Origin: Alkalispirochaeta sp.
Lineage (GTDB): Bacteria > Spirochaetota > Spirochaetia > DSM-27196 > Alkalispirochaetaceae
Direction: 5' to 3'
Assembly: GCA_965601925.1 (NCBI GenBank)
Contig: OZ271854.1
Span: 4,736,001-4,800,000 of the forward strand
DNA: 64,000 nucleotides
Shown here: piece by piece, positions 1,837-17,158 of the stretch
Numbering within the stretch: the first letter of the stretch is position 1
How the letters are laid out: the number at the start of each line of letters is the position of its first letter
The notes under the pieces: generated by a model
What the model was told of the DNA's origin: nothing
Database searches by the model: none
The model's input: the letters and a program-made list of their open reading frames with translations, nothing else
Position numbers and translations under genes: made by a program

Positions 1837-4800
1837 TTACACCGCACGAGGCACGATATCGTAGCGCATCGTGAGGTCCATCAAACTATCGAAGGGGCGG
1901 GAAAAACCCACCATGAGATAGCGTCGTGCTCCGGTGTCCCTGAGCGGCAACAACAGCCAGCTATTGACCGATACCAGCTTGCTCGCGTGGCAAGTATCGG
2001 CGAAATCGCGAAAAAACGACAGGGGTCGCTTGAGAAGGGCGACACGGCGAAAGGCGACGACATTCCGTACGAGGTCGCAATCGGGCTCGAAAGAGAGACT
2101 CGAATCACACTCTTCGCTCAACCCGATCCCGAAACTACCCTGCATACGCCCGTCCGCCAACTCATCGAGTACAAGGGCTACCCTCGCGTTCCAACGGCGC
2201 GTTATCTGCACCAACTCGCGATACACTTGACGAACTCCAACGTTACCCGAATCGACTCGTATCGGAAACTCGAACCCACCGGACACGATGCGAAGGGCGG
2301 TGTCTTGATGGTCGGCGGAGGATTGTTCCGATTCGGCGTCGTCAAAAATGTCGTCAAAATCGAGATCATCGAACGCCGTTTTGAGTACATCGTCAATGCT
2401 CGACAGGTCGTGGTGCAGGAGAATCTGTTCGGCCAGCAGCTGCACGCGCTGATCGATGTCGCGGTACTCCGCAAAGTACGCCGCCGCCCGGATCTGTATG
2501 AGTCCGTCCCGCTCCTCGAACACGCTGTGCCGACGACCGGCTGAAGCAAAGAAATCCTCAATCTCCATGATATGGTGCGTTTCGGTGTTCTCGATTCCGC
2601 GCACGACGATCTCGTCGGGGAGCGTTTCCTTCCGTATCGGTACTGTCGGCGCCGGACCGTCGGTGGAAGACGGCAGGGAGTCGCGAATGCTCGATGCGCC
2701 TCCGAATGAGGAAAAGGCGCTGACAAAGGACGGAGCACCCTCACCCACCTCTTCTATGGGTAGCGCCTCGGCGGAATCGAACTGCACTTCGTCGAGCTCT
2801 TCGATGAGCTCCTCCGACGCAACGGTGCCCCGGACCGGTGAGAGGTCCTCGACGTCGACGGGTTCCAGTTCCTCCACCGGTTCGAGCGCTCCCGATCCCG
2901 GTTCATCCGACTCCGCTATCTCCTCAAGTGCTTCGAGTTCTTCCGGATCATCGACGTCGACGATCTTCGGCAATCCGAACGTAGCCTCGTCCGGGTCGAC
3001 CATGGAGGCGTCGTCGGTTTGCGCGGCCTCCTCGAGCGGCGACGACGGAGCAAAATCGAGCGCGGCACGGTCTCCGGCCGGCTCAGGGATGAGCCTTTCA
3101 TCCTCGGACAGCTCCGGAGGTGTCGTGGAGACGGGCAACCAGTCTTGGGTGCGCGAAGCGGTCGCTCCCTCGGCACCGTCCGGAGATAGGTCGGCGTCCG
3201 AGCGCACGGTGTCGGGCTCATCTCGTACGGCATATCCGGCAAGCCAATCGGCCTCGGGCACGAGCGGCCCTATCTCCTCTTCGACGACGATTTCACCGAG
3301 AAACGGTTCTTCATCGATGCCTTCGACAATACCGATCGCAAGCGTTCCACCGGAGCCGTCTTCGCCGTACTCGGTTTCTTGCGGCTCGTCGACGGGGCCG
3401 GCCTCGTATGCCTCGTCGTCGGACTCGGCATCCGCGATCTCCGCCGATACGTCGTCGACGGCGACCGCCTCGTCCAGTTCGCCGTCGACGACCTCTTCGA
3501 GTTCGTCGATCGGCTCGGCTTCGACCATCTCCTCCACCACATCGAAAAACCTCGTGGGCGCTATATCCCCGGGCGCATCGGCGAGCTCCGCGGCAAGCTC
3601 CAGGTCTGCCGTCCCTTCAAACTCGTCAAGGCCTCCGGTTTCATCAGGCCGGCCGACCTGAACTTCATCGTGAACCCGACCCTCATCGGTCTCTATGAAC
3701 TCTTCCAGTTCGTCGACGGGCTCCGCATCCTCGATCCCCTCAAGCTCGTCGATCGGTTCGGCGTCAGGTATCTCTTCCGGATCATCGACCGGCTCGACAT
3801 CCCCGACCTCTTCCAGTTCGTCGACGGGCTCCGCGTCCTCGATCTCCTCAAGCTCGTCGATCGGTTCGGCGTCAGGCATCTCTTCCGGTCCGTCGACCGG
3901 CTTGCCGTCCCCGACCTCTTCCGACTCGTCGACGGGCTCCGCGTCCTCGATCTCCTCAAGCTCGTCGATCGGTTCGGCGTCAGGCATCTCTTCCGGATCA
4001 TCGACCGGCTCGACATCCCCGACCTCTTCCGACTCGTCGACGGGCTCCGCGTCCTCGATCTCCTCAAGCTCGTCGATCGGTTCCGCGTCAGGCATCTCTT
4101 CCGGATCATCGACCGGCTCGACATCCCCGACCTCTTCCAGTTCGTCGACGGGCTCCGCATCCTTGATCTCCTCAAGCTCGTCGATCGGTTCGGCGTCAGG
4201 TATCTCTTCCGGATCATCGACCGGCTCGACATCCCCGACCTCTTCCAGTTCGTCGACGGGCTCCGCGTCCTCGATCTCTTCCAACTCGTCGGATCGATGT
4301 CGTCTCGCCGGTTGCGACGCGACGTCCGACTCAGGATGCGTCGTTGAGGAAGCCGAGAGCCTCCCGTAGCGCGACAACGTGCGCTCGATAATCGCCTCGA
4401 TTTGCTTGAGGCTGACCGGTTCGAGCTCAGCCCGTTGCGCGTCGCCGCGGGTGCCGAAGAGGTGATAGAGCTCGTCCCAATTGCGACTCATCTCTTGTTC
4501 GAGTCGCCGGCGAGACTCCTCGTTCACGCGTCCCAAGCCGCGTTGCAACTCGTTATCGATGCGTTCGCGTCGTCCGTCAAGCTCCTTCTTCCACAACTCC
4601 GGCTCGACGGCACGTCCTTCGCGCAGATAATCGCGGACCACGGCCTGTTGAAATCGACGGAACCGCTCGGCGACGATGATCGTCGGGTCCTGACGAATAT
4701 TGAGAATTAAGTAGCTCACCAAGAAGGTCGCCACGAATACCGCGGCGAGAAGAATGACACGCAGGCCGTTGTCCATATGGAGTTCGGCCTCCCGTATGAG

Positions 4801-5619
4801 CATGACACCGACCGGAACGAACTCGCTCTCCTCCCGCACTTCGACGGCGAAGGTTGCACCGATCGCACTCTCGAGGATGGGTACCGAATCGCCGCGAGCG
4901 ACCGCCGTGTCGATGTGCGACAGATCCTCCCGGTTGAAGTGGCGCGGCGCGTTGAACACCAACACGCCGCCAGGTGTTAGGCGAACGCGTTGCGAAGGGC
5001 CGATGATTCCCTGATCAACGAGGCGCGAGAAGAGGCCGCTACTACCGGCCCACGCAACGAGGACACCCCGCGGTATGGAGAAGCCGTCGACTATGGGCGC
5101 CGTTACCCGCACCCCCCCGCGCTCCGGAATCCACTCCACCCCGCGCTCTTCTTCCGGCGTTTGCGGGAGAAACAACGGCGGGTCGAGGGCCTCAACCGGT
5201 TGGTACTCGATGCTGACGTCACTACGCGACCGAATGTCCGCATCGAGTGAGCTGAACCACAACCGTCCCCGTTCATTGTCGATGATTCGTATATAGTCGA
5301 TTTCCGGGCGCGACTCCGATAACCGACCCATCAACCGAGCGCGTTCTTCCGTGTCGGTACGGCTCTGATTGATGAGAAACACGGCGCCGACGGACCGCTC
5401 GGCGGCCAGCGAGCCGATGTCGCGAAGGAGGGCGCGCGAATACTGCGCAGTGACGCCCGCGGCCTCTTCCATGAGGGCGCGCGTCGTCGATCGTACCCGT
5501 TGATTGTAAAACCGCGTATCGATGAGGTCAAAAAGCCCCGAATAGGCGGCCACGGCGAAGCCGGTGAACACAGCCGTGGCGAGAAGGAAGCTTAACAGGA
5601 CCTTTTGAAATACTTTCAT
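1837..5619 (-). CDS. Large (1260 aa) two-TM membrane protein: extracytoplasmic domain, long acidic repeat/disordered region, C-terminal GAF-like domain
   Basis: Hydrophobic segments at aa ~7-30 and ~288-308; D/E/P-rich tandem repeats; globular C-terminus (..LLLPLRDTGARRYLMVGF). The GAF call is inference. Confidence 0.75.
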   Translation of the reverse strand: MKVFQKVLLSFLLATAVFTGFAVAAYSGLFDLIDTRFYNQRVRSTTRALMEEAAGVTAQYSRALLRDIGSLAAERSVGAVFLINQSRTDTEERARLMGRLSESRPEIDYIRIIDNERGRLWFSSLDADIRSRSDVSIEYQPVEALDPPLFLPQTPEEERGVEWIPERGGVRVTAPIVDGFSIPRGVLVAWAGSSGLFSRLVDQGIIGPSQRVRLTPGGVLVFNAPRHFNREDLSHIDTAVARGDSVPILESAIGATFAVEVREESEFVPVGVMLIREAELHMDNGLRVILLAAVFVATFLVSYLILNIRQDPTIIVAERFRRFQQAVVRDYLREGRAVEPELWKKELDGRRERIDNELQRGLGRVNEESRRRLEQEMSRNWDELYHLFGTRGDAQRAELEPVSLKQIEAIIERTLSRYGRLSASSTTHPESDVASQPARRHRSDELEEIEDAEPVDELEEVGDVEPVDDPEEIPDAEPIDELEEIKDAEPVDELEEVGDVEPVDDPEEMPDAEPIDELEEIEDAEPVDESEEVGDVEPVDDPEEMPDAEPIDELEEIEDAEPVDESEEVGDGKPVDGPEEMPDAEPIDELEEIEDAEPVDELEEVGDVEPVDDPEEIPDAEPIDELEGIEDAEPVDELEEFIETDEGRVHDEVQVGRPDETGGLDEFEGTADLELAAELADAPGDIAPTRFFDVVEEMVEAEPIDELEEVVDGELDEAVAVDDVSAEIADAESDDEAYEAGPVDEPQETEYGEDGSGGTLAIGIVEGIDEEPFLGEIVVEEEIGPLVPEADWLAGYAVRDEPDTVRSDADLSPDGAEGATASRTQDWLPVSTTPPELSEDERLIPEPAGDRAALDFAPSSPLEEAAQTDDASMVDPDEATFGLPKIVDVDDPEELEALEEIAESDEPGSGALEPVEELEPVDVEDLSPVRGTVASEELIEELDEVQFDSAEALPIEEVGEGAPSFVSAFSSFGGASSIRDSLPSSTDGPAPTVPIRKETLPDEIVVRGIENTETHHIMEIEDFFASAGRRHSVFEERDGLIQIRAAAYFAEYRDIDQRVQLLAEQILLHHDLSSIDDVLKTAFDDLDFDDIFDDAESEQSSADHQDTALRIVSGGFEFPIRVDSGNVGVRQVYRELVQITRRWNARVALVLDELADGRMQGSFGIGLSEECDSSLSFEPDCDLVRNVVAFRRVALLKRPLSFFRDFADTCHASKLVSVNSWLLLPLRDTGARRYLMVGFSRPFDSLMDLTMRYDIVPRAV
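3700..4290 (-). repeat. Intragenic tandem repeat: 108-bp (36-aa) unit, 5 full copies plus a partial, each made of three 36-bp (12-aa) subunits
   Basis: Unit DELEEIEDAEPV-DELEEVGDVEPV-DDPEE(I/M)PDAEPI repeats with few substitutions; near-identical at DNA level. Confidence 0.95.
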
Positions 5620-6114
5620 CTTCGATCAATCAACACGTCGGGCATAGGTAATCTCCTAACAATTGTCGGTTATGGCAAGGGGCTTATTAATTGCAACCCG
5701 TCACATTACACTCCGGACTCTGCCGCTCTCTCCGACTACTACAAGTATGACGCGCATTGGACGAATATCTTCTCTACGGCGATCCAATTGGCGCGCTGTA
5801 TGAGGGTAGGGACGGGAGCGTGCCGATATGTCCTACGCGCTCTTCACGCGGTCGGCGCGTTGCCGCCGTAACGGAGGCGAGCCGAAGGGGGACGCGCGTA
5901 CAGTATGCTCCTCGATCTCGATACCAACGACACGCGCGCTCGTCCCGTGTTACAAGAGACGCTTCGGACGGCAAACACTTGTGACCGGTGCGGGCTCGCG
6001 AGATTTCGACGGATCGGCCGTCGAGGCGTCGGTTCGGCGACGCTCCGGACGACGCAGGGGCGTATCGCCGGTGAGCCGCGAATCGACGTACGACGACCGG
6101 CATGGGGAGGAGCG

Positions 6115-6975
6115 ATGGACGCAACTGAGAGGCGATCGACGGTAGCCCAAGAGCTGGTTATGCGGGCGGGACGGCGCGCGCAAGAGCTACGCGACGGTGG
6201 CGTGTCGCGGGACGTAAAGGGTCGTCACGACTTCGTTACCGACGCCGACCGCGAGATCGAGGAGACGTTACGCAGCGAACTCCACGCCTCGTTTCCCGCG
6301 GACCGCTTTCTGGGCGAGGAGACGGGAGTTCGAGAGCCCGAGGACGAACTATCCGGTAACGGCGCGGTGAATGCGTCCGATGGTACGGCGCGGGGCACCG
6401 GCCTGTGGATTCTCGATCCCGTCGACGGCACCGCAAACTTCGCCGCGGGACTCGATGTGTGGTGCGTATCCCTGGCGTGGGTGCGCGACGGTGCGGCGCA
6501 CCTTGGAGTCGTCTATGCACCCGACTGCGACGAACTGTACGTCGCGCGGCGAGGGGGCGGGACGCGCCTCAACGGACGGCCCCTCTCCATCACCGACACG
6601 ACGCCGGTAGAACACTCCCTCATTATGACCGGTCGCGGCGCGTCGCTCTCGGTGGAACACCACCTAGAGATCCTTCGACGAATCTTGGCGCTCGGGTTCG
6701 AGTACCGCCGTCTCGGTTCCGGAGCGTTGGGAATTGCACGCGTCGCCACCGGCCGAATCCAGGGATACGTGGAGCCGGCGATGTATCCGTGGGACGTTGC
6801 GGCCGCCCGTTTGGTAGTAGAAGAGGCCGGTGGGGCGCTCTCGCCGTACCCGTTCGATGCTTCGGCACAGGAGTTGGGACCGCCGGTCGTTGCGTGCCGC
6901 CGAGACCTCCTCTCGATGCTTACGACGACCGTCACCGCTCTGGATCCGATCTCCGAAACGGAGCACTCCGTGTAG
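6115..6975 (+). CDS. Inositol monophosphatase family protein (SuhB/HisN-like)
   Basis: DFVTDADREIE, FLGEE, WILDPVDGTANF, RRLGSGAL, PWDVAAA. GGAGG RBS before ATG 6115. Confidence 0.92.
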   Translation: MDATERRSTVAQELVMRAGRRAQELRDGGVSRDVKGRHDFVTDADREIEETLRSELHASFPADRFLGEETGVREPEDELSGNGAVNASDGTARGTGLWILDPVDGTANFAAGLDVWCVSLAWVRDGAAHLGVVYAPDCDELYVARRGGGTRLNGRPLSITDTTPVEHSLIMTGRGASLSVEHHLEILRRILALGFEYRRLGSGALGIARVATGRIQGYVEPAMYPWDVAAARLVVEEAGGALSPYPFDASAQELGPPVVACRRDLLSMLTTTVTALDPISETEHSV

Positions 6976-7065
6976 GATCGGTGTGGCGGACCGGCCGAAC
7001 CTCGATGTGTTCCCCTCGATCGAGGCCGTCCGCTGTAACCATTCGTCGGCTACGCTCCGAGTGAA

Positions 7066-9438
7066 CTACCGGTAGTCCGGGAGCGCGATGCGTTGTCCCG
7101 GAACGATGATGGCAAACTGCTCCAGCTGAGGATTGGCCTCGAACACGTCCAGGATGTATTGAAGCCACGTTACGTCCGGCGAAACCGAGTACGGAGTACC
7201 ATCCGCGGTAGCAATGGAAGCGTCCGAGGCGCGGCGGAACAGGTCCCACGCGGTCTGTCCCGCCGCGACGGTCCACACGAACCCGTCCTGGCCGCCCTCG
7301 ATACGATAGATCGCGACCGCGCCCTCCTCGCCTCGTCGACCCTCCCGTCGATCCGAGGCCGACGGGCTCTGCGCGTTGCGCCGAGGCTCGGTGTCGGAAC
7401 GCGACGCCGCGGAAGGCTCGCCCGTCTCGATGAGAGTATCGCCGTCGCCGGATCGACGAGTGATCACCTCCCCGTGGTCGCGCCGGTTGCCGCGGACTAT
7501 GAGCACCAGCACGGATAGAAGCGCGACTCCCACCGCGACGATTGCGCGAAACGGCACCCGTCTCCCGCGCGAAGGTCGCCGCCCGCCGCCGGCCTCCCGA
7601 TCGCGAGGTCCCGTCGCGGCGTCACTCGCCGGCGCGAGGGGCGTTTGTTCGACGGCGTCGCGTGGTTTCACGTCCGTTTTGCTCGTTGTCGCGTTAGCTC
7701 GGCTCGCGTCGGCCGCGTCGAGAGCTGAAGCGGTTTCCGGCTCCGACACGCCCGTACGCGACGGTCCATTCTCCACTTCATGGGACTCTCCGCTCTCGAC
7801 GCCTTCGACGACGAGTTCCACCGGCGATGCGTCGCCGACGGATGAGGAGGGCTGCGCGGGTTCTGCGTCGGTGGGGCCGACTGCAGTCCCGCCGGTATCG
7901 TCCGCGGCGCGACCGTGCTCCTTCGGCGATGCCGGAGTCGACTCGCGGCGTTCTTCTCTCCCGGGCCGCCCCTCGCCGGATGCCTCGGGTGCCGGCGTTC
8001 GCATGTCGGGCGATACGGCCCGGTCTTTGCGTTCCGTGCGGCCCGCCTTGCTCGTTCGACCGGCACTCGCCGGACTGGGAGCGGCCGCGTCGCTCTCCCC
8101 CGCGCGGCCGGCTGCAGGCGGCCCGATCGTCTCGTCGGCGGGTGCGTCGGTATGGGTCGCCGTCTCCTCTCCGTCGACGTCGGCGCCGTCTATCCCTTCG
8201 ATGATCCGCAAGAGTTCACTCAAGTTACGATTAAAGTGGATGGTGTAGTCAGAGGTCGCCTCCTCTCCGGACGCGCCCCGGGCCTTGTACCCCGCCGCAC
8301 CGCGGCCCGACTCCGCGGAAGCCTCGATGTTCCCCGCGACCGTGCCGAGCCGTTCTCCCAAGTCACTCCGACTCTCATCGGCCGACGCCTCGGACCGCAG
8401 TCGGTCCGCATCGCCTTCTCGCGCGCCCACGGGATCCGACAGACGCGTGCCGGCGACGATGTCGGCTTCCGTTACAGGGAACGGATGTGCCGGTTGCGGC
8501 GCCCGGGAAGACGAGTCGATCGGCGCGCCGTCCCCGCGCCGATCGCGATCGCTCGTACCGTCGACGGCGAAACGGCGAGGTCGGTCGGCCTCGGCTCCGC
8601 TTTCCGGGTAAAGGGCGGCCGGGCCTCGCCGGTGCGGCGCTCCCTCGGGCGTCCCGGACGAGGGAGCTCTTTCGGTGTCGGGCGTTTGCTCGTCATCGGC
8701 CGTATCGGGGCTGCGGATCGAGCGCTCGATGGACCGTTCGGCACCGTCGGGCGAAACGGTATCGCCGATCGTCGGCTCCTCGGCGTAGTTAAACTCGCCG
8801 GACAGTGCGGCGTCGCCTTTGCGTTCCAGCTCTGCGATAATCGCCTTCAGACTGCGAAGATACGCAAGCGTGCCGGCGACGACGTTGTCCGGTAGGCGCG
8901 CATCGATACGGTACATCAAGAAGCTCAGCATCGCACGATTCTGTTCGTGTAAATCGACGCGACACATGATCATCGTGAGATATAGCGCAACCTCGGCGGG
9001 AGTGAAGGTCGATTGCACGGTCCGGATCTTCATTCCATGGCTAATCGCCCGCCGAAAGGACAGATACGCGCGACTCCCGATATCGTAGGTCACATCGGAG
9101 GGGAGCGGATGACGACTACGAAAGAGGTGCGCGCGAAGAACGTTCTCGTCGGCGAGGTCCAACCGTCCGCGCAATCGCGCAAAGAGCCGTTCGGTCGTAA
9201 CGAAGTTGCTCTCACCCAACTTCGCCGTCAACAGGAGCGCCAGGACGAGGTGTTCTTTGGGTCCCGACGGATCGGCGTACTCCTCTTCTACAATCGCACG
9301 AACGCGCGCGCGGTCCCGCCCGTCGTGGAGCGCGAGAAATGCAGCGATGCGTTCATCGAGCTGCGTACACCACTTGTGAATGTGCGCGAATGCAAAGAGT
9401 GCCTGCAGCTCGTCTCGAATTTCGTCGTCACGCGCCAT
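7066..9438 (-). CDS. Hypothetical bitopic membrane protein: helical N-domain, ~400-aa disordered linker, one TM, C-terminal LysM-like domain
   Basis: GGAGGAGG RBS; TM AIVAVGVALLSVLVLIV preceded by Arg-rich stretch; C-term WTVAAGQTAWDL...FEANPQL...IVPGQRIALP resembles LysM. Confidence 0.7.
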   Translation of the reverse strand: MARDDEIRDELQALFAFAHIHKWCTQLDERIAAFLALHDGRDRARVRAIVEEEYADPSGPKEHLVLALLLTAKLGESNFVTTERLFARLRGRLDLADENVLRAHLFRSRHPLPSDVTYDIGSRAYLSFRRAISHGMKIRTVQSTFTPAEVALYLTMIMCRVDLHEQNRAMLSFLMYRIDARLPDNVVAGTLAYLRSLKAIIAELERKGDAALSGEFNYAEEPTIGDTVSPDGAERSIERSIRSPDTADDEQTPDTERAPSSGTPEGAPHRRGPAALYPESGAEADRPRRFAVDGTSDRDRRGDGAPIDSSSRAPQPAHPFPVTEADIVAGTRLSDPVGAREGDADRLRSEASADESRSDLGERLGTVAGNIEASAESGRGAAGYKARGASGEEATSDYTIHFNRNLSELLRIIEGIDGADVDGEETATHTDAPADETIGPPAAGRAGESDAAAPSPASAGRTSKAGRTERKDRAVSPDMRTPAPEASGEGRPGREERRESTPASPKEHGRAADDTGGTAVGPTDAEPAQPSSSVGDASPVELVVEGVESGESHEVENGPSRTGVSEPETASALDAADASRANATTSKTDVKPRDAVEQTPLAPASDAATGPRDREAGGGRRPSRGRRVPFRAIVAVGVALLSVLVLIVRGNRRDHGEVITRRSGDGDTLIETGEPSAASRSDTEPRRNAQSPSASDRREGRRGEEGAVAIYRIEGGQDGFVWTVAAGQTAWDLFRRASDASIATADGTPYSVSPDVTWLQYILDVFEANPQLEQFAIIVPGQRIALPDYR

Positions 9439-9632
9439 TCCGCGAACTCTTTCACCTCCTCCCTACAGCATAAGCCAGCGGCAAAAACTCTTCCCCTTCG
9501 ATACCGATCTCGGTGATCAGCGTAGAAAGCGTTGCCGATACGCCCAAAGAGGACCATTCGGTTCGAATTTGCAATTTCGTCGTGCATGACCGAAGGTCTT
9601 ACATGGGAAGAAGTGATTCGAGGAATCCTGAT

Positions 9633-10376
9633 ATGACCGACGTGTATCCCGAATCTGAGTTTGATGCGATCGTTCGAGAGCATCGCCATATCATTCTCGA
9701 CGGCGTCTTCGGTACCGCCACTCCTATCCAAGTCGGATCGAGTATGGCGTTCGCCAGGTACTTGAGTCACGTCGGTATAACGCCGAAGAACTATCTGCTG
9801 TTCTTGAGAGTGATCGAAACCAACAACAAATGGGTCGTCGATGAACTCGTCGGAACGCGCGACCCGCGTCTCTTCTTCTCGACGATCCGTCCTAACCCCG
9901 GGCTCGTCCGTCGGGCGTTCGAGCTGTTGTCCGCCTGGCATCCCGGCCAAATCTACTCGAAGGTGCTGCTCACCGTGTTGGGAATCATCGAATACTCGTA
10001 TCACAAACCGGACGACGGATTTCGGATATATCCGATAGGGATCACCGATTTGCATAACCTGGGTAAATTTCTGGACGCAACATTGGACCAGATGGATCCG
10101 ACCAACGCCACGGTCCTCGAGATTCTCGATCGCATTACGCGGCTGGGCGAGTACGATGGGGGAACGGAAAAGATCACCATCTCCAAACACGCCTTCAACA
10201 TTCGCGATTCATTTTTCGACAACACGAAGACCTTGATGGACACGATCCCCAAAATACTACTGGTACGCCTTAACAGGGAGGAGCATGAGGTCGCTCCCTC
10301 CCGAGAATACATCGACCTCGCGGCAAAGATTGAGGCACATATCGAAACTACATCATCGGAAGGACGAAAGGCATGA
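9633..10376 (+). CDS. Unknown-family protein, paralog A (247 aa)
   Basis: GAGGA RBS before ATG 9633; aligns end to end with the ORFs ending at 14404, 15171 and 15980 (NY..FL, IY.K.L...LG, D...LGK.L, L[DE]ILD, IR..F.D..K, IP..LL). Confidence 0.85.
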   Translation: MTDVYPESEFDAIVREHRHIILDGVFGTATPIQVGSSMAFARYLSHVGITPKNYLLFLRVIETNNKWVVDELVGTRDPRLFFSTIRPNPGLVRRAFELLSAWHPGQIYSKVLLTVLGIIEYSYHKPDDGFRIYPIGITDLHNLGKFLDATLDQMDPTNATVLEILDRITRLGEYDGGTEKITISKHAFNIRDSFFDNTKTLMDTIPKILLVRLNREEHEVAPSREYIDLAAKIEAHIETTSSEGRKA

Positions 10377-11275
10377 GTATGACGGTGTCGGACATCAAAA
10401 AAGTCATATCGATTGTCGAGACCAACGCCAACAGGCCCACAAGCAGTACGGGCATTCCGGGCGGGCTTTTGGACTACTCCGCGGACGAGCGGCCGGTCAT
10501 CGTTATCGGCGATCTCCACGGGGCGATCGACAATTTAAAGGCGATTATCGAGCACAACGACAATCGCACCAAGCTGGAGCGCGGCGATATACTCGTCGTT
10601 ATTCTCGGCGACGGCATCCACAACGATCAGACGGGCCAAATGCTGGAGATGGACTCGTCGCTGGAGGTCCTGGAGGAGGTCTTTCGCCTGATTTTGACGT
10701 ACGGCGAAAACGTCATCTACATCCGGGGCAACCACGACACGTTCGACGAGAACATCGCCAAGAGCGCCGTCAAACAGGGGCTCGAGTTTCGAAACTACCT
10801 GGCGGTTCATCGCGACGAGAAGTACATCGCGGCGGTCGACGAGTTCTTCGAGGCGCTGCCGATGTTTATCATCGGTAACGGCTACGTGATCACTCATGCG
10901 GGTCCGGTTCGTCACGGGTGTACCCGCCGGGAGCTCATCGACGTTAAAGACAATCCGGATTACTACCGCCAACTCATGTGGAACCGCCTGCACGAGTTTC
11001 GTGGGACACCGAGCCTTAAGGAGTACGGAGAACAAGACATCCAACGGATGCTGGAAAAACTGAACCTACCGACCGATACCCCGTTCATCGTCGGACACAA
11101 CCCCATGTGGCGATCGGGCAATGAGACGGGAATTTGGCGGGACATCATCGGGATTAAGAATCACATCATTCTCTATTCGAATCTGCAGACGCGCGGGCCG
11201 TATCTTGTGGTGGAGGGCGGACAGATTCACGAGTTCTATGCCGTGCCGGACACGCCGGAGAGGTTTTATGTCTGA
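10373..11275 (+). CDS. Calcineurin-like metallophosphoesterase (PPP Ser/Thr phosphatase-like)
   Basis: GDLHG, LGDGIH, IRGNHD, THAG, L.WN, GHNP motifs; ATGA overlap with paralog A. Confidence 0.9.
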   Translation: MSMTVSDIKKVISIVETNANRPTSSTGIPGGLLDYSADERPVIVIGDLHGAIDNLKAIIEHNDNRTKLERGDILVVILGDGIHNDQTGQMLEMDSSLEVLEEVFRLILTYGENVIYIRGNHDTFDENIAKSAVKQGLEFRNYLAVHRDEKYIAAVDEFFEALPMFIIGNGYVITHAGPVRHGCTRRELIDVKDNPDYYRQLMWNRLHEFRGTPSLKEYGEQDIQRMLEKLNLPTDTPFIVGHNPMWRSGNETGIWRDIIGIKNHIILYSNLQTRGPYLVVEGGQIHEFYAVPDTPERFYV

Positions 11276-12197
11276 AAAAAACAGTAACATGCTGATTGCC
11301 GATACCATTCACGATGAAGCGGTGCGACGCTATCTCTATCTCGATCTGTCCATTGACCAACTGATTACCAAGCTGAGCAGCGTAGAGCTGTCGGATATCG
11401 GGGACGAGCAACTCACCCCCTTCTTTGCCAAGGTGCGGGGCTACACGGGCGCACACGACGGCGACGGTGATCCGTGGCTCGTAAAGGAGATACCCGCCTC
11501 CGAGGGTCCGAGCCACAAGATCCAGGAGATCGCCTATTACGTGGATTTCCTGCTGAAAACGCCGGCGGCGCCGACCGTTCTCCTACGCCAGGACGGGAAG
11601 GTGTACCGGGCGACGAAGCTCATCACCAGCGCAATGCAGATCGGCAGCTACAACTACTTGGAGCAGCCGTTCATAAAGATGCTGGCCAACGACCTCCTGA
11701 ACCGCTGGCTCTTTTTCGACGAGGATCGCAACCCCAACAACTATCTGGTGAAACACGACACCGATGGAGAGCCGTACATCGTCGTCATCGATTATAACAA
11801 GGCCGACCTCGAGCACCCGGACATGAAGATCACCGGTACCGACGACCATTTCGGGTGGTATCGTGAAGAGAAGACGCGCTTTTTGACGCTCCTGAAACCC
11901 GAAAACTTTCAGGTGCTGAACATCGACGACTTTGAGGAGCGTCTCACACTCATGAAAGGACTCGAGGAGTCTACGCTGTTCGGAGTGTGCAAGAAGGTCT
12001 TCTCGGGCGACATATTCGACGATCCGGACGGTGTAGCGCACACCATTGCGTCGAATCTCGTCGGCCGCATCGCGTATCTCGACGGCTACTTTCGCACATG
12101 GTTCAAGGAACGAAACATATCCAAGGAAGAAGAGGTGGACGATCGCTACTCGGGACTCGGTCAATCGTTTCTTAACTACTACAAACGAAAGACGTAA
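11268..12197 (+). CDS. HipA/PI3K-PI4K-like atypical kinase (309 aa)
   Basis: WLVKE (ATP Lys), QEIAY (helix-C Glu), A.P.V, DEDRNPNNYLV catalytic loop, VVIDYNKA metal-binding motif. GAGG RBS; start overlaps the phosphatase stop. Confidence 0.75.
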   Translation: MSEKNSNMLIADTIHDEAVRRYLYLDLSIDQLITKLSSVELSDIGDEQLTPFFAKVRGYTGAHDGDGDPWLVKEIPASEGPSHKIQEIAYYVDFLLKTPAAPTVLLRQDGKVYRATKLITSAMQIGSYNYLEQPFIKMLANDLLNRWLFFDEDRNPNNYLVKHDTDGEPYIVVIDYNKADLEHPDMKITGTDDHFGWYREEKTRFLTLLKPENFQVLNIDDFEERLTLMKGLEESTLFGVCKKVFSGDIFDDPDGVAHTIASNLVGRIAYLDGYFRTWFKERNISKEEEVDDRYSGLGQSFLNYYKRKT

Positions 12198-12217
12198 ATC
12201 GTGGGGACGGTGCCGGT

Positions 12218-14338
12218 ATGCCGCAATCGGGAGAGACCATAAACGGTTGCTATACGTTACAAGAAAAGGTGGGAGAAGATCGCTTCTTCTCCACGTGGCG
12301 CGCAACGGCTCTCTACTCGCCCAATAGCTTCTCTCTCACCTTTCTGACGTTTCCATACAAGAGTGTCCCGAAACGCGCATTCGATGAGTTCCGCCGTCTC
12401 TTTCTTTCGCTCTACACACTTCAGAACCCGTACGTTCTCACGCCGTTTGAGTATGACGAGTCGGGGGAGACGAAGTATCTCGCGTCGCACTGGATTAATG
12501 GTTATTCGCTTCGCGAGGCGATCGACAACGGTGACTTCTCCGAGAAGGACCAAGTTATCAACACCGCGATTCACATCCTCCGCGGTCTTGCAGAACTGGA
12601 GCGAATCGGTGTTCGACACGACGTACTCACGCCAAAATCACTGTTATTGAGCAGCTTGAACTCCGACTACGACGTTCCCAGAATACGCAACATCGGCTTC
12701 TCTCTGTTCATCGACGCGTTGGGAGCCGCTGCGGAGTACCGCGATCTGCCGCGCTATCGCACCGAATCACTGAGGGAGGAGACGCACGAGCGAGATCTCT
12801 ATGCGGCCGGGGCGATCATCACCGAACTCGTGTCGGCCGTAGACACCGCCGATCTCTCGACCTTGGCCGACATCGGTCGCGCATTCTGCGCCGACACGGC
12901 CTCGTTTACCTCGGTCAACGACGCATTGGCGTACTTCCTAACGCAATACCCTGAAAAGCGAACCGTCGACTTGATTCAAGAGCACGTCGCGGATGTCCAG
13001 ATCGACGACACGATGAGCCGGGACCTCTACCGCAGTATCGAAGCGCGCTACCTGGCGACCAAGGAGTCCGCGGAGGAAGGGAGCTTCCGCGCCGCTTTTG
13101 CGGAGTCGCCTCCTCCGCGGCGCTCGGCTCGTGGGAGGGCTGCCGGGAGTGCTCCATCGGGTGACGCCGCCTACGAAGAGCCACCTGAGGACGCACGCGC
13201 CGAAGATGACGACGAGATTGCCGAACTCCTTCCCGTCGATCCCGACGGTGTCGAGGAGGCTCCCAAGGGATTTCTGGCGCGAGCGGTCTCGGCGGTACGC
13301 CGTCTCTTTGCGCGCCGCTCCAACAAACACGCCGCGCCTCAGGACGAGACGGCGAGCGAAGCGCCCGTCGCCGATACCGGACCCCCGGGCGGCGGCGACT
13401 CAGGTGAAGCGTCGCCGACGCCGAACGACGCCGCGCTCGAAGGTTTCCGCAAGGGTGCGCCGTCGGACCCCGCGCCGGTGTTGTCGCATCCCGAGTCCCA
13501 CGAACCCCAAGAGGTCGATACCTCGCGCATATTCGAGATATTCCGACAACTCAAGGAGCACTTCATACGTACGATTCGTCCCGAGGAACACCGCCTCCGA
13601 CTCGACCACGGCGGATCGCGGCCGCAAAAACGATCGCCGTGGCACGGTGCCCTCAGGGCACGTTCGGGATCTGCGGAAGAGGCCCTCGATACATCGGCCG
13701 AGCGGCAAGCCGCTCCCAAATCGAAAAAAACCCGGTCTCGCACCGCCGCCGGCGAAGCGGGTCCCTCGGTGGATACCGGAGAGCATGAGAATGCCGCTCC
13801 GTGGAGCGTTACGCGGGACACCGAAGGAGAGGGAAAGGATTACGACTTCAAGCCGGGCCCGGACTACGCGCCGGGTGAGCGTCGCGGTTTGGATGATGAG
13901 ATCGGAGAGCCGGGGGATATCGACTTCGGTTCGAGCGCGCTACGGACCGATCGCGAGGCGCCGACCGACTCCGAGGGAGACGATGAGGCGTTACACGACG
14001 ACATCCGTCGAGGGCAAACCGCAACGCGACACGACGCGCTCGACGACGACGCGGCCGCACCGGATCAGGCTACAGCGAGCGCGACTCCGGTCGATAGTGC
14101 CGCCGCCGAGCGGCCCGACGCCGACCGTGTAGGGCCGGACACCGATGGTGGAGACGGTTCCCGCCGCAAGAGACGGCGCCGCGCCGCCGAGGCCGCCCCG
14201 ACTCAAGGGAGTCATGGAATGCAAAACGGTGGCCGGGAGGCGTCGGAACGTCGCCCTAAATGGTTTTGGCGTCTTGTTGCACGAGCGCAATCGATCGTGC
14301 GCCGCCTCGGAGATACGATCTTCCGACGGGAACAGTGA
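12218..14338 (+). CDS. Hanks-type kinase-fold protein, probable pseudokinase, with long disordered C-terminus
   Basis: GETINGCYTLQEKVG, LQNPYVL, G.SLREAI, ILRGLAELE..GVRHDVLTPKSLLL, DLYAAGAI; VAIK, HRD and DFG degenerate. Confidence 0.75.
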   Translation: MPQSGETINGCYTLQEKVGEDRFFSTWRATALYSPNSFSLTFLTFPYKSVPKRAFDEFRRLFLSLYTLQNPYVLTPFEYDESGETKYLASHWINGYSLREAIDNGDFSEKDQVINTAIHILRGLAELERIGVRHDVLTPKSLLLSSLNSDYDVPRIRNIGFSLFIDALGAAAEYRDLPRYRTESLREETHERDLYAAGAIITELVSAVDTADLSTLADIGRAFCADTASFTSVNDALAYFLTQYPEKRTVDLIQEHVADVQIDDTMSRDLYRSIEARYLATKESAEEGSFRAAFAESPPPRRSARGRAAGSAPSGDAAYEEPPEDARAEDDDEIAELLPVDPDGVEEAPKGFLARAVSAVRRLFARRSNKHAAPQDETASEAPVADTGPPGGGDSGEASPTPNDAALEGFRKGAPSDPAPVLSHPESHEPQEVDTSRIFEIFRQLKEHFIRTIRPEEHRLRLDHGGSRPQKRSPWHGALRARSGSAEEALDTSAERQAAPKSKKTRSRTAAGEAGPSVDTGEHENAAPWSVTRDTEGEGKDYDFKPGPDYAPGERRGLDDEIGEPGDIDFGSSALRTDREAPTDSEGDDEALHDDIRRGQTATRHDALDDDAAAPDQATASATPVDSAAAERPDADRVGPDTDGGDGSRRKRRRRAAEAAPTQGSHGMQNGGREASERRPKWFWRLVARAQSIVRRLGDTIFRREQ

Positions 14339-14403
14339 TACCAAAAAAAATCGTCCCGCATGGGATATGCGGAACGACATCGATTTCATCGTTACGATTG
14401 CGG

Positions 14404-15090
14404 TCAGGCCGTCGCAGGGGCAATCTCCAGCTTCGTATAATCCTCGATTTGCAGCAGGAGATCGGGAATCGCCTCGTTAAGGGATTTGTTCATATCCAAA
14501 AACTTTCCGCGAATGTTGTTGGCCTGAATGGCAACCGCCATCACCTCTTCCTCTTCGTCAGGGCGACCGGGATCTACAAGAGCAGCAACTTTATCCAATA
14601 TATCTAAAATACTGGCGTTGAGTGGGAATCGCTGATCCTGTTTCTCATCCAGGTGTTTGCCCATATTGTTGATATCGGTCGTCGTCAACGGATAGACGCG
14701 ATATCCCTCGACCGAGTTCTCATAGGTGACTTTGAGAATACCCAGATAGGCCAACAAACTCTTTGGATAGATTCCCCCCCGATAGGCTTGGTCCAGCGCC
14801 CGGAAACACTCCTTGAGAATGAAGTAGTTCGGCTGCACGGCGTTGAAGTACGTCTCCGGTTGCGCGTCACCGAGCAGCGCATCGGTCACCCAGTGGTTTC
14901 GCAAGCTGATAAGCTTCAGGAAGATCGGATAGTTGTCGGGATTGACGCCGACCTTTTGCAGGTAACCGGCGTATGCGATCGCCGCACCGACACCTATGGG
15001 ATCATCCACTCGAAGAATGCTGGTGAGGAAGGACAGCTCGAGCTTATCGAGATCTTCCTGGCCCCAACCGTTTTCTTCCCATCGTTTCAC
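14404..15090 (-). CDS. Unknown-family protein, paralog B (228 aa)
   Basis: AGGAGG RBS before GTG 15090; shares all family motifs (NYPIFL, IYPKSL, DINNMGKHL, ILDILDK, ANNIR.KFLD, AIPDLLL, EIAP). Confidence 0.88.
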   Translation of the reverse strand: MKRWEENGWGQEDLDKLELSFLTSILRVDDPIGVGAAIAYAGYLQKVGVNPDNYPIFLKLISLRNHWVTDALLGDAQPETYFNAVQPNYFILKECFRALDQAYRGGIYPKSLLAYLGILKVTYENSVEGYRVYPLTTTDINNMGKHLDEKQDQRFPLNASILDILDKVAALVDPGRPDEEEEVMAVAIQANNIRGKFLDMNKSLNEAIPDLLLQIEDYTKLEIAPATA

Positions 15091-15112
15091 TGACACCCTC
15101 CTTTGTTGAGAT

Positions 15113-15143
15113 CCGATGGGAGGAGAGCACGCCCTCCCATCGG
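15113..15143. other. Intergenic perfect 11-bp stem-loop without U-tract
   Basis: CCGATGGGAGG-N9-CCTCCCATCGG between paralogs C and B. Confidence 0.8.
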
Positions 15144-15170
15144 CATTCATGCGGAACGGTCACGCAACGA

Positions 15171-15971
15171 CTACGTCTCTCCGTTCTTGGGCGCCTCTTT
15201 TGCGGCCGCCTTGGCGGCGGGCTTGGCCTGCTTGGGGGTCGACGCGGGCTTCTCAACTTCGGCGAGGGGCTTTCGATTCCTGGGATCCATCTCGGGATCC
15301 AGTTTTACCTCGGTCCGCAGGAGAACGGTCGGAATAACCTGGCGCAGACTCTTGGTGGAGTCGAAGAAGTTGTTCCGAATGTTATGGGCGTGGACCGCCA
15401 GGTCCTCCATCTCCTCGTCCCTGTTCTGGCCCTCCAGCTCGGAGAGCTTGTCGAGGATATCCAGGATACTGCGGTTGAGGAGGTCGTCCTGTCCCTTTTC
15501 CTCGATCAGGTGCTTTCCGAGACTGTTCACATCGGCGATCGTCGGCGCGTAGATGTTGTACCCGTCGAGAGGATTGTTGTACGTCGCCTGAAAAACACCC
15601 AGAATAATTCCCAAAGTCTTCGAGTAGATCTCAGCGGGATGGTATTTCGCCAGAAAGCTAAAGCACGTAGCGACAATAAAATAGTTCGGCTGGATCGAGC
15701 TCATGAACAGGAAGGGGTCGCGCGTTCCCAAGAGAGAATCGATCACGTGATGGTTGCGCACGCCAAGCACCTTCAGAAAGACCGGGTAATTACTGCTCGT
15801 GATCCCGATGCTATTGAGGTAGTTGGCGTACATCATCGCCGCCTCGACGGCCTCCTGTGTTCGTACACCCATCAGCCCCTGAAGCAGACTGTATTCGATG
15901 CTCGCGATCTCCGATTGCGACCATGTTTCTCGTTTCTCAAACAGTTCTTTCATCGTGACGTATCCTTTCAC
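15171..15971 (-). CDS. Unknown-family protein, paralog C, with basic K/A/P tail (alternative start ATG 15953)
   Basis: NYPVFL, IYSKTL, DVNSLGKHL, ILDILDK, AHNIRNNFFD, VIPTVLL; tail KPASTPKQAKPAAKAAAKEAPK. Confidence 0.88.
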   Translation of the reverse strand: MKGYVTMKELFEKRETWSQSEIASIEYSLLQGLMGVRTQEAVEAAMMYANYLNSIGITSSNYPVFLKVLGVRNHHVIDSLLGTRDPFLFMSSIQPNYFIVATCFSFLAKYHPAEIYSKTLGIILGVFQATYNNPLDGYNIYAPTIADVNSLGKHLIEEKGQDDLLNRSILDILDKLSELEGQNRDEEMEDLAVHAHNIRNNFFDSTKSLRQVIPTVLLRTEVKLDPEMDPRNRKPLAEVEKPASTPKQAKPAAKAAAKEAPKNGET

Positions 15972-15979
15972 TCAATCCT

Positions 15980-16675
15980 TTAGGCAAAGAGCATATCGGG
16001 GGCTACTTCTTTGGCGATGTAGTCCGACTTGACCAACAAGACCTGCGGAATGATCTCTTCCATCTTCTTTCGCTTGTCGAAGAAGAACGTCCGAATGCTA
16101 TTTGCCTGGCGAGCCATCTGCTCGATTTCGGGATTCTCCGTCGTACCGGCCAGCGATCCGAGACGATCCAGAATGTCGAGAATAACGCGATTATTCGGAT
16201 CGTCCTGCCCCAACTCCTTGTTCAAGTGCTTGCCCAGATTATTGACATCGTTAATGCTCACGGCATAAATTCTATAACCGTCTTTCGGCGAGCTGAACGC
16301 AGCCTGCAGCACACCCAGGATGATGGCGAGGGTCTTCGGGTAGATTCCGCCCGGGTGCCAATTCGTGAGTAGCTTGTACGCACTCAGAATGAGATAGTTG
16401 TTCGGATGGATCGAGCTCAAGAGCAGGAACGGGTCCTTTTCGCCGATAAGCGAGTCGATAACCCAGTGGTTTTCCACCTCGAGTAACCGAAGAAAGAGCG
16501 GGTAATTGAAGGCGGTCAACCCTGACATACGGAGAAATCTCGCGTAGCTGATGGATGCTCCTACGGCCTCGACCGTGCGACACCCTATCATGCGCTCGAT
16601 AATGTTGATTTCTACGTCCATTATCGATTCACGAGTCCAAGCGTCCTCGATCACTTTTTCCTGTTGTTCGTCCAT
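15980..16675 (-). CDS. Unknown-family protein, paralog D (231 aa)
   Basis: AAGGAGG RBS; NYPLFL, IYPKTL, DVNNLGKHL, ILDILDR, ANSIRTFFFD, IIPQVLL, EVAP. Confidence 0.9.
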   Translation of the reverse strand: MDEQQEKVIEDAWTRESIMDVEINIIERMIGCRTVEAVGASISYARFLRMSGLTAFNYPLFLRLLEVENHWVIDSLIGEKDPFLLLSSIHPNNYLILSAYKLLTNWHPGGIYPKTLAIILGVLQAAFSSPKDGYRIYAVSINDVNNLGKHLNKELGQDDPNNRVILDILDRLGSLAGTTENPEIEQMARQANSIRTFFFDKRKKMEEIIPQVLLVKSDYIAKEVAPDMLFA

Positions 16676-16733
16676 TCATTCCTCCTTGTGGTATACATTT
16701 GACCGAACAAAGAAACTCAACCTCACGAAAAAA

Positions 16734-16762
16734 AGTCTCGAAGGCGCGATACCGTTTGTCAA
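16734..16762 (-). promoter_or_regulatory. Candidate sigma70 promoter for the paralog D-C-B operon
   Basis: TTGACA-N17-GAGACT on the minus strand; -35 is perfect, -10 imperfect. Confidence 0.45.
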
Positions 16763-16984
16763 GGCTGGGAGGAATGTTTGTCGTATTTCGACTACGTCAC
16801 CCGTGATAGACGGCGTGGACCTTTACAAAATACGAGATAATCGAGGTCCAATTCGTCGATACGCTCTGCAGACGGCGTCAGAACGAGATTATCGCCCGTA
16901 CACGGGAGGCATTCGCCGCCGCGATCGTGCAGTCCCTACGGTTTTGAGACGACCGCCGGTACTATGGAAAGGAGCGCGCGCGCC

Positions 16985-17158
16985 ATGAATCGGGAGATCA
17001 TTACAGAAGCCCTCAAAGCGGCCAAAGGCGGCGACCAAGAGACCATCGAACGGATTGTTTCGGATGGATTTTCCGTTAACCGGACGGACGAGCATGGATT
17101 CACCCTGCTGATGGAGGCGGCAGCGTCCGGGGTTCGGATTACGCGGGTGTCCCCATGA
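16985..17158 (+). pseudogene. Truncated ankyrin-repeat gene
   Basis: AAGGAG RBS; AAKGGDQETIERIVSDGFSVNRTDEHGFTLLMEAAASG is about 1.5 ankyrin repeats, then the ORF runs into the yjbQ 3' end. Confidence 0.65.

Follow-up and report, generated by a model that had tools for sequence, protein, structure and literature searches.

Two described systems resemble most closely the locus reported here. BtubA/BtubB of Prosthecobacter are reported to form a tandem paralog pair that, together with an accessory gene, is acquired horizontally and behaves as a self-contained unit wherever in the genome it is located (PMC2175320). The kinase-kinase-phosphatase (KKP) module of Pf prophages is reported to place two kinase genes and a phosphatase in a mobile module (PMC11341870). 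Here we analyze a 64,000-nucleotide stretch of an Alkalispirochaeta genome (contig OZ271854.1, positions 4,736,001 to 4,800,000; hereafter the window), which encodes four paralogs of an unrecognised protein family, A to D, next to a phosphatase (PP), an atypical kinase (K1) and a predicted pseudokinase (K2). A preliminary description of this DNA had proposed that the paralogs are non-redundant subunits of a hetero-oligomer or are linked to the kinase as its substrates or adaptors. We find that they fall into four orthologous clades, that C and D are predicted to pair, and that the D-C-B genes are set apart from the rest of the module by conservation or dosage.

Results

Four collinear paralogs of an unrecognised family

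Paralogs D (15980-16675, 231 amino acids), C (15171-15953, 260 amino acids, with a Lys/Ala/Pro-rich tail) and B (14404-15090, 228 amino acids from a GTG start) are on the minus strand, B being the third gene of the D-C-B transcript. Paralog A (9633-10376, 247 amino acids) is on the plus strand with three genes in between, and the four are not one tandem array. All four open reading frames are real, and each is preceded by a clear ribosome-binding site (GGAGG, AAGGA or GAGGA), as had been noted from the sequence. Pairwise local identity among the four proteins is 37-48% with E <= 1e-38, so their likeness is not due to chance. Their alignment contains 50 invariant columns, which include all of the motifs from which collinearity was originally proposed, and indels, described earlier as almost absent, are limited to the N-terminus, the tails and one 3-residue loop insertion in B. 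Hydropathy gave no transmembrane stretch in A-D, again as described, and all four proteins are net acidic. In the genome, one contig of 5.05 Mb, the family has four copies and no more; a fifth paralog was looked for and none was found. A public contig carries 5000-17800 of the window uninterrupted and letter for letter, and may be where this DNA comes from. Across the family 26 positions are universal, and the invariant polar residues are N57, Y58, N69, D74, Y112, D143, K149, Q157, N162, D170, R195 and D200. A coral metagenome contains pieces of a relative that is ~90% alike across B-C-D.

The lower guanine-cytosine (GC) content that had been judged by eye is a real dip: 53-55% where 2-kb windows cover the genes for the paralogs and kinases (at 9-13 and 15-18 kb) versus 60-68% in most flanking windows. 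Third-codon-position GC in this region (0.64-0.76) matches the flanks (0.66-0.73), so the cause of the dip is amino-acid composition and not foreign codon use. Low GC was rejected as proof of recent transfer for the same reason.

Searches of A-D against Pfam, NCBIfam, PADLOC and PDB sequences returned no significant match, in agreement with the earlier view that the family is unrecognised. A profile of the A-D alignment reached a best E of 1.1 against PDB sequences, the ESM Atlas gave no match at or above 0.9, and A-D have no known catalytic or metal motif. Profile searches recovered 645 clusters at 90% identity (212 representatives at 50%), and a search started from a non-spirochaete member recovered at least 1518 clusters, with every displayed name reading 'hypothetical protein'. 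Viral contigs gave 44 pattern matches and no relative among these. No relevant paper on the system or on its motifs turned up in the literature searched, in which subscription journals are thinly covered. As far as searched, the family is undescribed, and it is not a variant of a nameable system.

The proposal that the family is helical agrees with a confident AlphaFold2 (AF2) model of D (predicted local distance difference test [pLDDT] 93.8, predicted template modelling score 0.88), which has 12 helices and zero strands. Foldseek searches of this model against PDB and BFVD gave nothing at E <= 0.001, with template modelling scores up to 0.43 at E >= 0.05. The best VIA match was the armadillo (ARM) domain of MEILB2 (7ldg; Z 8.2, root-mean-square deviation [rmsd] 5.4, 165 aligned), which lies in the chance range for helical proteins, and the next was CNOT9 (4cru; Z 7.8, rmsd 5.5, 165 aligned). 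ENTH, VHS and IP3-receptor domains were among the weaker matches (VIA Z 7.0-7.6), also in the chance range. AlkD, CpcE/F and FliG, which we considered as candidates, are absent among the 50 VIA rows for D and are not thereby excluded.

Orthologous clades and their spread

A genome scan, of which the best 80 of 135 confirmed matches were followed, yielded 67 loci, or 68 with the window; the 67 are all from Spirochaetota where the title names a taxon. K1 is present in 47 of the 68 loci, 12 have only a two-gene form of the family (E and F), and of the 9 others eight are cut by contig ends and one (L042) is without K1 nearby. The complete six-gene core (A, B, C, D, K1 and PP) is present in 36/67 loci. 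Two layouts recur: convergent as in the window, or A-PP-K1-D-C-B-K2 on one strand. A third layout, found in G230, G106, G155 and G176, has five paralogs, mostly tandem, beside K1.

To place the paralogs, a tree of 220 domains was built by a quick method, with Shimodaira-Hasegawa-like approximate likelihood ratio test (SH-aLRT) support only and with three L034 rows as long branches. Clades A, B, C and D were recovered as stable orthologous groups with SH-aLRT values of 95, 91, 100 and 98, respectively, and E is sister to D. These clades support the non-redundancy of the well-diverged copies. Hetero-interaction, the second part of the original proposal, is supported only by a model of D with C (below), and a fixed four-subunit ring or shell is not supported. 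Copy number differs between genomes, with 2 to 8 family members in each, which leaves no fixed ring of four subunits; in addition, the two-gene form can be kinase-free, D-C-B can occur twice per A, and some relatives have a short fifth paralog, whose clade adjoins the gene U790 in four loci and has no member in this genome.

The family was found in 16 of 401 Spirochaetota genomes, a sample that includes incomplete genomes and kin, so that absence here means not found in those searched. K1 was found in 12 genomes, all within those 16, and in 0 of the other 385. This co-occurrence supports the proposed link between the paralogs and the kinase.

The two-gene form extends further. Of 301 metagenome loci the best 80 were followed; E lies ahead of F in 70 of these, and in the other 10 F is near a contig start. 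These loci have a GC content of 0.35-0.72 and an identity to spirochaete E/F of ~70% or above; the form reaches Acidobacteriota, and the named rows include Vicinamibacteria and Rhodothermales. A long coiled-coil gene adjoins the E-F pair in 26/52 more distant loci, where coiled-coil matches may be unspecific, and the single member scanned has a receiver domain. L036 (4149-12979) and 11 similar loci combine the two-gene form with a SpoIIE phosphatase, an RsbW-like ATPase, alpha/beta hydrolases and a conserved ~70-amino-acid helical protein; this small partner has a Lys/Ala/Pro tail and was not found in this genome. Small genes in these Rectinemataceae-type loci are presumably STAS-like. A homologue of an unknown two-gene-locus gene is present at G000:C1:2322909-2330070, near a gene which we take to resemble that of the treponemal cytoplasmic filament protein CfpA.

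In 20/42 A proteins (L059 9854-10924, L028 9863-10906 and others) the tail carries a basic motif, RDxxGRF, which is missing from A of the window. These tails have no Pfam match, and the motif string was not found in the literature searched.

Conservation, expression signals and dosage of D-C-B

To compare conservation within the module, we determined median identity to orthologues, which is 75.5% for C and 74% for D; it is 47.5% for A and 48% for B, and 43-49% over A, B, K1 and PP. C and D are also more conserved than ribosomal proteins in 3/3 genome pairs (C/D 93/95 vs 66.8%, 87/88 vs 67.2% and 73/72 vs 63.3%).

D-C-B has a candidate sigma70-like promoter at 16734-16762 on the minus strand (TTGACA, 17 nt, GAGACT), which fell below the threshold of a promoter scanner and was not listed by it. 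TTGACA occurs within 160 nt upstream of 32/53 D genes, 1/44 A genes and 137/3300 random windows. Ribosomal-like codon use places B, C and D at percentiles 99.3, 98.0 and 95.7, with A, PP, K1 and K2 at 36-50.

In L028, L041, L049 and L059, D-C-B is duplicated at 98.9-100% identity over 2.3-2.4 kb, the copies flanking K2-A-PP-K1. The duplicates end at the promoter or ribosome site on one side and just past the B stop on the other. In L041, 18 coding bases distinguish the two copies without changing any residue; in L059, the differences are 7 bases and 1 residue. L034 has a related triple that is repeated, and one further genome shows a collapsed-repeat pattern. Near-identical duplicates of this kind suggest selection for D-C-B dose, with homogenisation between copies.

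A predicted C-D heterodimer

Modelled together, D and C gave an interaction prediction score from aligned errors (ipSAE) of 0.87, and the best control gave 0.00. The ipSAE mark that we applied is reached by 116/157 solved complexes and 2/215 mismatched pairs, counts that are rough with our own alignments. Runs of the D+C model share at least 88% of contacts, with partner pLDDT of at least 88. The interface is pseudo-two-fold and formed by residues 12-63 and the C-terminal tail in a head-to-head pairing; structure searches turned up no similar complex. C and D are thus predicted to pair as a heterodimer. The helix pattern of the dimer is kept in all clades, and in one genome (L042) D and C are fused in frame. 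P0001 and P0276, which at first sight are fusions as well, read through intergenic DNA, have the look of frameshift artefacts and were not counted.

Most of the conserved positions are located elsewhere. Residues 101-224, outside the predicted interface, contain 19/26 universal and 21/27 C-versus-D-specific positions, suggesting a second interaction surface for polymer contacts, partners or ligand.

The inserted segment

The module is part of a segment (5620-17138) that carries an inositol monophosphatase gene, U790, A, PP, K1, K2, B, C and D between a 1260-amino-acid gene and yjbQ. These two outer genes are 50-89 bp apart in 5/5 relatives and have 11.5 kb between them here. The family is carried by 0/40 closest relatives, including 0/16 in the genus. 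Between this genome and that with the closest module, ribosomal proteins are 66.8% and YicC 39% identical, versus 95% for D, 93% for C, 78% for PP and 74% for K1. The simplest reading of these comparisons is that the module was likely gained horizontally. We found no terminal repeats at the insertion ends, and no integrase or phage gene was recognised among the open reading frames of the segment.

The inositol monophosphatase gene (5905-6975, plus strand) lies inside the insertion and is beside the module in 0/67 other loci. At the right end is a 64-amino-acid open reading frame (16964-17158, plus strand) with no second copy in the genome, which we take to resemble a truncated ankyrin repeat. 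On the left the insertion is flanked by the gene for the 1260-amino-acid protein (1837-5619, minus strand). This membrane protein has two hydrophobic segments, a strongly acidic repeat region (net charge -215) and an N-terminal part that is kept in 5/5 relatives.

Phosphatase, kinases and U790

PP (10373-11275, plus strand) is a calcineurin-like metallophosphoesterase (Pfam PF00149, E 1.6e-15, 58.5 bits vs a cut-off of 21.5), and its metal-binding motifs GDxH, GD and GNHD are kept across 46 sequences, as is GHNP. A, PP and K1 overlap at start and stop codons; the stop of A overlaps the PP start in an ATGA, by which A is likely translationally coupled to PP. A second, diverged PP copy is found downstream of K2 in L067 (16113-17000).

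K1 (11268-12197, plus strand; AF2 pLDDT 89.2) is modelled with a fold of the PI4KII/CtkA/Fam20/HipA type. Foldseek matched it to PI4KII at E 1.4e-5, and VIA ranked PI4KII (Z 15.0, rmsd 3.9, 231 aligned) above CtkA (14.1), Fam20 (13.8), MavQ (13.2) and HipA (12.4). None of 45 members has a Pfam match, and K73, E79, DEDRNPNN and D175 are conserved in 45 sequences. With a predicted kinase fold, catalytic Lys and Glu, a DRxxxN loop and a metal-binding Asp, K1 has the features of an atypical kinase and is likely the active kinase of the module. K2 (12218-14338, plus strand), in contrast, is a predicted pseudokinase with a long low-complexity acidic tail: its match to Pkinase (E 5e-4) is below the cut-off, and in a 43-sequence set neither HRD nor DFG occurs where the alignment would place it.

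U790 (7066-9438, minus strand) has a conserved helical N-domain, a long disordered linker, one transmembrane segment near residue 627 and a LysM-like C-terminus, for which there is a weak lead (E 0.02-0.16 in one orthologue, E 0.019). It is present in 17/68 loci and may be an envelope anchor. Profile comparison found it unrelated to the family; for its N-domain, hhalign gave a probability of 0.07, which rules against a distant paralog.

B is followed by a terminator-like hairpin (14350-14378, minus strand; 12 pairs, then T7). Hairpin-type sites in the region number 12 versus 10.8 in shuffles, so this one is supported by its position only. A membrane-linked GGDEF gene adjoins the module in 11/68 loci (L028 9044-9826 and 10 others), and a GGDEF-like gene occurs in 10/52 of the more distant metagenome loci. 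No transporter, metabolic, defence or phage gene recurs beside the module in the 68 loci or the distant metagenome loci.

Discussion

The reading that we favour, and to which we would give an even chance, is that C and D form an abundant building block with A and B as minor subunits, the whole being regulated by K1 and the phosphatase. D-C-B would be made in bulk from its own promoter, and C-D dimers would be the repeating unit of a cytoplasmic assembly. K1 and PP, made together with A, would phosphorylate and dephosphorylate this assembly, switching it on or off, while K2 and U790 would scaffold or anchor it. We infer the high abundance of C and D, the roles of A and B, and the use of protein phosphorylation as the switch. 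A bolder version strikes us as doubtful but worth stating. In it, C-D dimers, or E-F dimers in other phyla, would be the protomers of a bacterial cytoskeleton or organelle lattice that needs no nucleotide and has so far gone unrecognised. Conserved C-terminal lobes would join the dimers into filaments or sheets, with A, B and the fifth, short paralog capping or nucleating them; U790 would anchor the lattice through the membrane to the wall, K1 and PP would toggle it, and the cassette would spread across phyla like gas-vesicle or Btub operons.

An optional, mobile family whose core members evolve more slowly than ribosomal proteins points to a missed cell structure or switch, one missed because its carriers are mostly uncultured. 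If the favoured reading is true, a PI4KII/CtkA-fold kinase gains a candidate substrate within its own cell. The idea is directly testable, since the A-D parts are small, soluble and confidently modelled.

Several observations weigh against this reading. Evidence for assembly stops at the predicted dimer. The D+C controls were unrelated proteins and not homodimers or other paralog pairs, only 3/27 C/D-specific positions are in the predicted interface, and an underpowered coevolution test (637 sequences, effective 140) missed the interface pairs, which ranked 1695-22359 of 22791. The L042 fusion is possibly an assembly artefact. The codon-use signal was repeated in 3/5 other genomes and reversed in 2, on backgrounds of only 6-21 genes. 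The fold of K1 ties lipid kinases with protein kinases to within ~1-2 Z units, and the two-gene form has neither K1 nor PP in its locus (12 genome loci), indicating that the core pair can do without the kinase.

Some of the same data would also suit other functions. The dimer helix pattern kept in all clades could belong to small signalling dimers, adaptors or partner switches whose alternative pairs bind different targets and are toggled by the adjoining kinase and phosphatase. Armadillo-like folds are typical of adaptors, the Rectinemataceae-type two-gene loci hold a SpoIIE phosphatase and an RsbW-like ATPase, and GGDEF and receiver genes recur nearby. In general, however, adaptors in signalling rarely exceed ribosomal proteins in conservation and are rarely dose-duplicated with a strong promoter, and we consider this explanation unlikely. 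An enzyme or small-molecule binder, with an active site in the C-terminal lobe and with K1 and PP acting on its small-molecule substrate, would account for the invariant polar residues from N57 through D200, and the patchy horizontal spread fits an optional pathway. We regard it as decidedly unlikely given that the proteins lack a known catalytic or metal motif and any Pfam, NCBIfam or PDB-sequence match, that the short fifth clade keeps few of the invariant polar residues, and that no transporter or metabolic gene recurs beside the module.

Insertion at a site that is empty in relatives, with the module in 0/40 of them, would be expected of a toxin-antitoxin or anti-phage system of the kinase-kinase-phosphatase type, with the paralogs as sensors of infection; the fold of K1 is common to HipA and HipT, and KKP offers a precedent (PMC11341870). 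Such a system is very unlikely here, since A-D, PP and K1 have no PADLOC match and K2 matches only generic kinase models, and since the 44 viral-contig candidates include no relative and no defence or phage gene recurs nearby. Extreme conservation is, moreover, unlike most defence sensors. It is highly improbable that K1 phosphorylates a lipid or inositol head group that PP then clears, with the paralogs as ENTH/VHS-like readers that coat membranes. PI4KII does head the structural matches of K1 (Z 15.0), which also include MavQ (Z 13.2), ENTH, VHS and IP3-receptor domains are among the weak matches of D, and the insertion contains an inositol monophosphatase gene. However, CtkA (14.1), Fam20 (13.8) and HipA (12.4) follow closely, the D matches do not rise above the chance range for helical proteins, none of the 67 other loci has the monophosphatase gene next to the module, and A-D are net acidic. 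We assign an equally slight probability to a nucleoid-associated or DNA-tethered complex with basic tails regulated by phosphorylation. The RDxxGRF motif in the tails of 20/42 A proteins and the Lys/Ala/Pro-rich tails of C and of the small partner of the two-gene form would fit, and we take C-type and RDxxGRF tails to resemble DNA-binding tails; against this, the cores are acidic, A of the window lacks the motif, B and D have no tails, and the tails have no Pfam match.

Comparison with known systems

Armadillo and HEAT alpha-solenoids are, like D, all-helical stacks. A-D differ from them in having no ARM or HEAT match in Pfam or NCBIfam at E 0.1 and no visible internal sequence repeat, and in being collinear paralogs with a predicted N-terminal dimer. 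On the model, the paralog fold is weakly armadillo-like at most.

K1 shares with the PI4KII, CtkA, Fam20, HipA and CotH kinases its modelled fold and the conserved positions of the catalytic Lys, Glu, DRxxxN and Asp. It is only ~10-15% identical to them, and in the genomes searched it never occurs apart from the paralog family. Unlike in HipBA and HipBST, an adjacent helix-turn-helix antitoxin gene is absent; the neighbours of K1 are PP, K2 and the paralogs, with no match to a helix-turn-helix family.

Like KKP, the module has two kinase-fold genes and one phosphatase and is mobile. It is not in a prophage, there being no phage gene among the insertion open reading frames and no viral-contig relative, and it does not have two catalytic Ser/Thr kinases, K1 being atypical and K2 lacking HRD and DFG equivalents. 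Its core consists instead of four paralogs of an unrecognised family. The likeness to BtubAB lies in a mobile operon with a paralog pair and is an analogy of the works-like kind only. The modelled paralog is all-alpha without strands and has no tubulin/FtsZ GTPase fold, the C-D pair is a predicted 1:1 dimer, and the module, unlike BtubAB, additionally has a kinase, a phosphatase and a pseudokinase.

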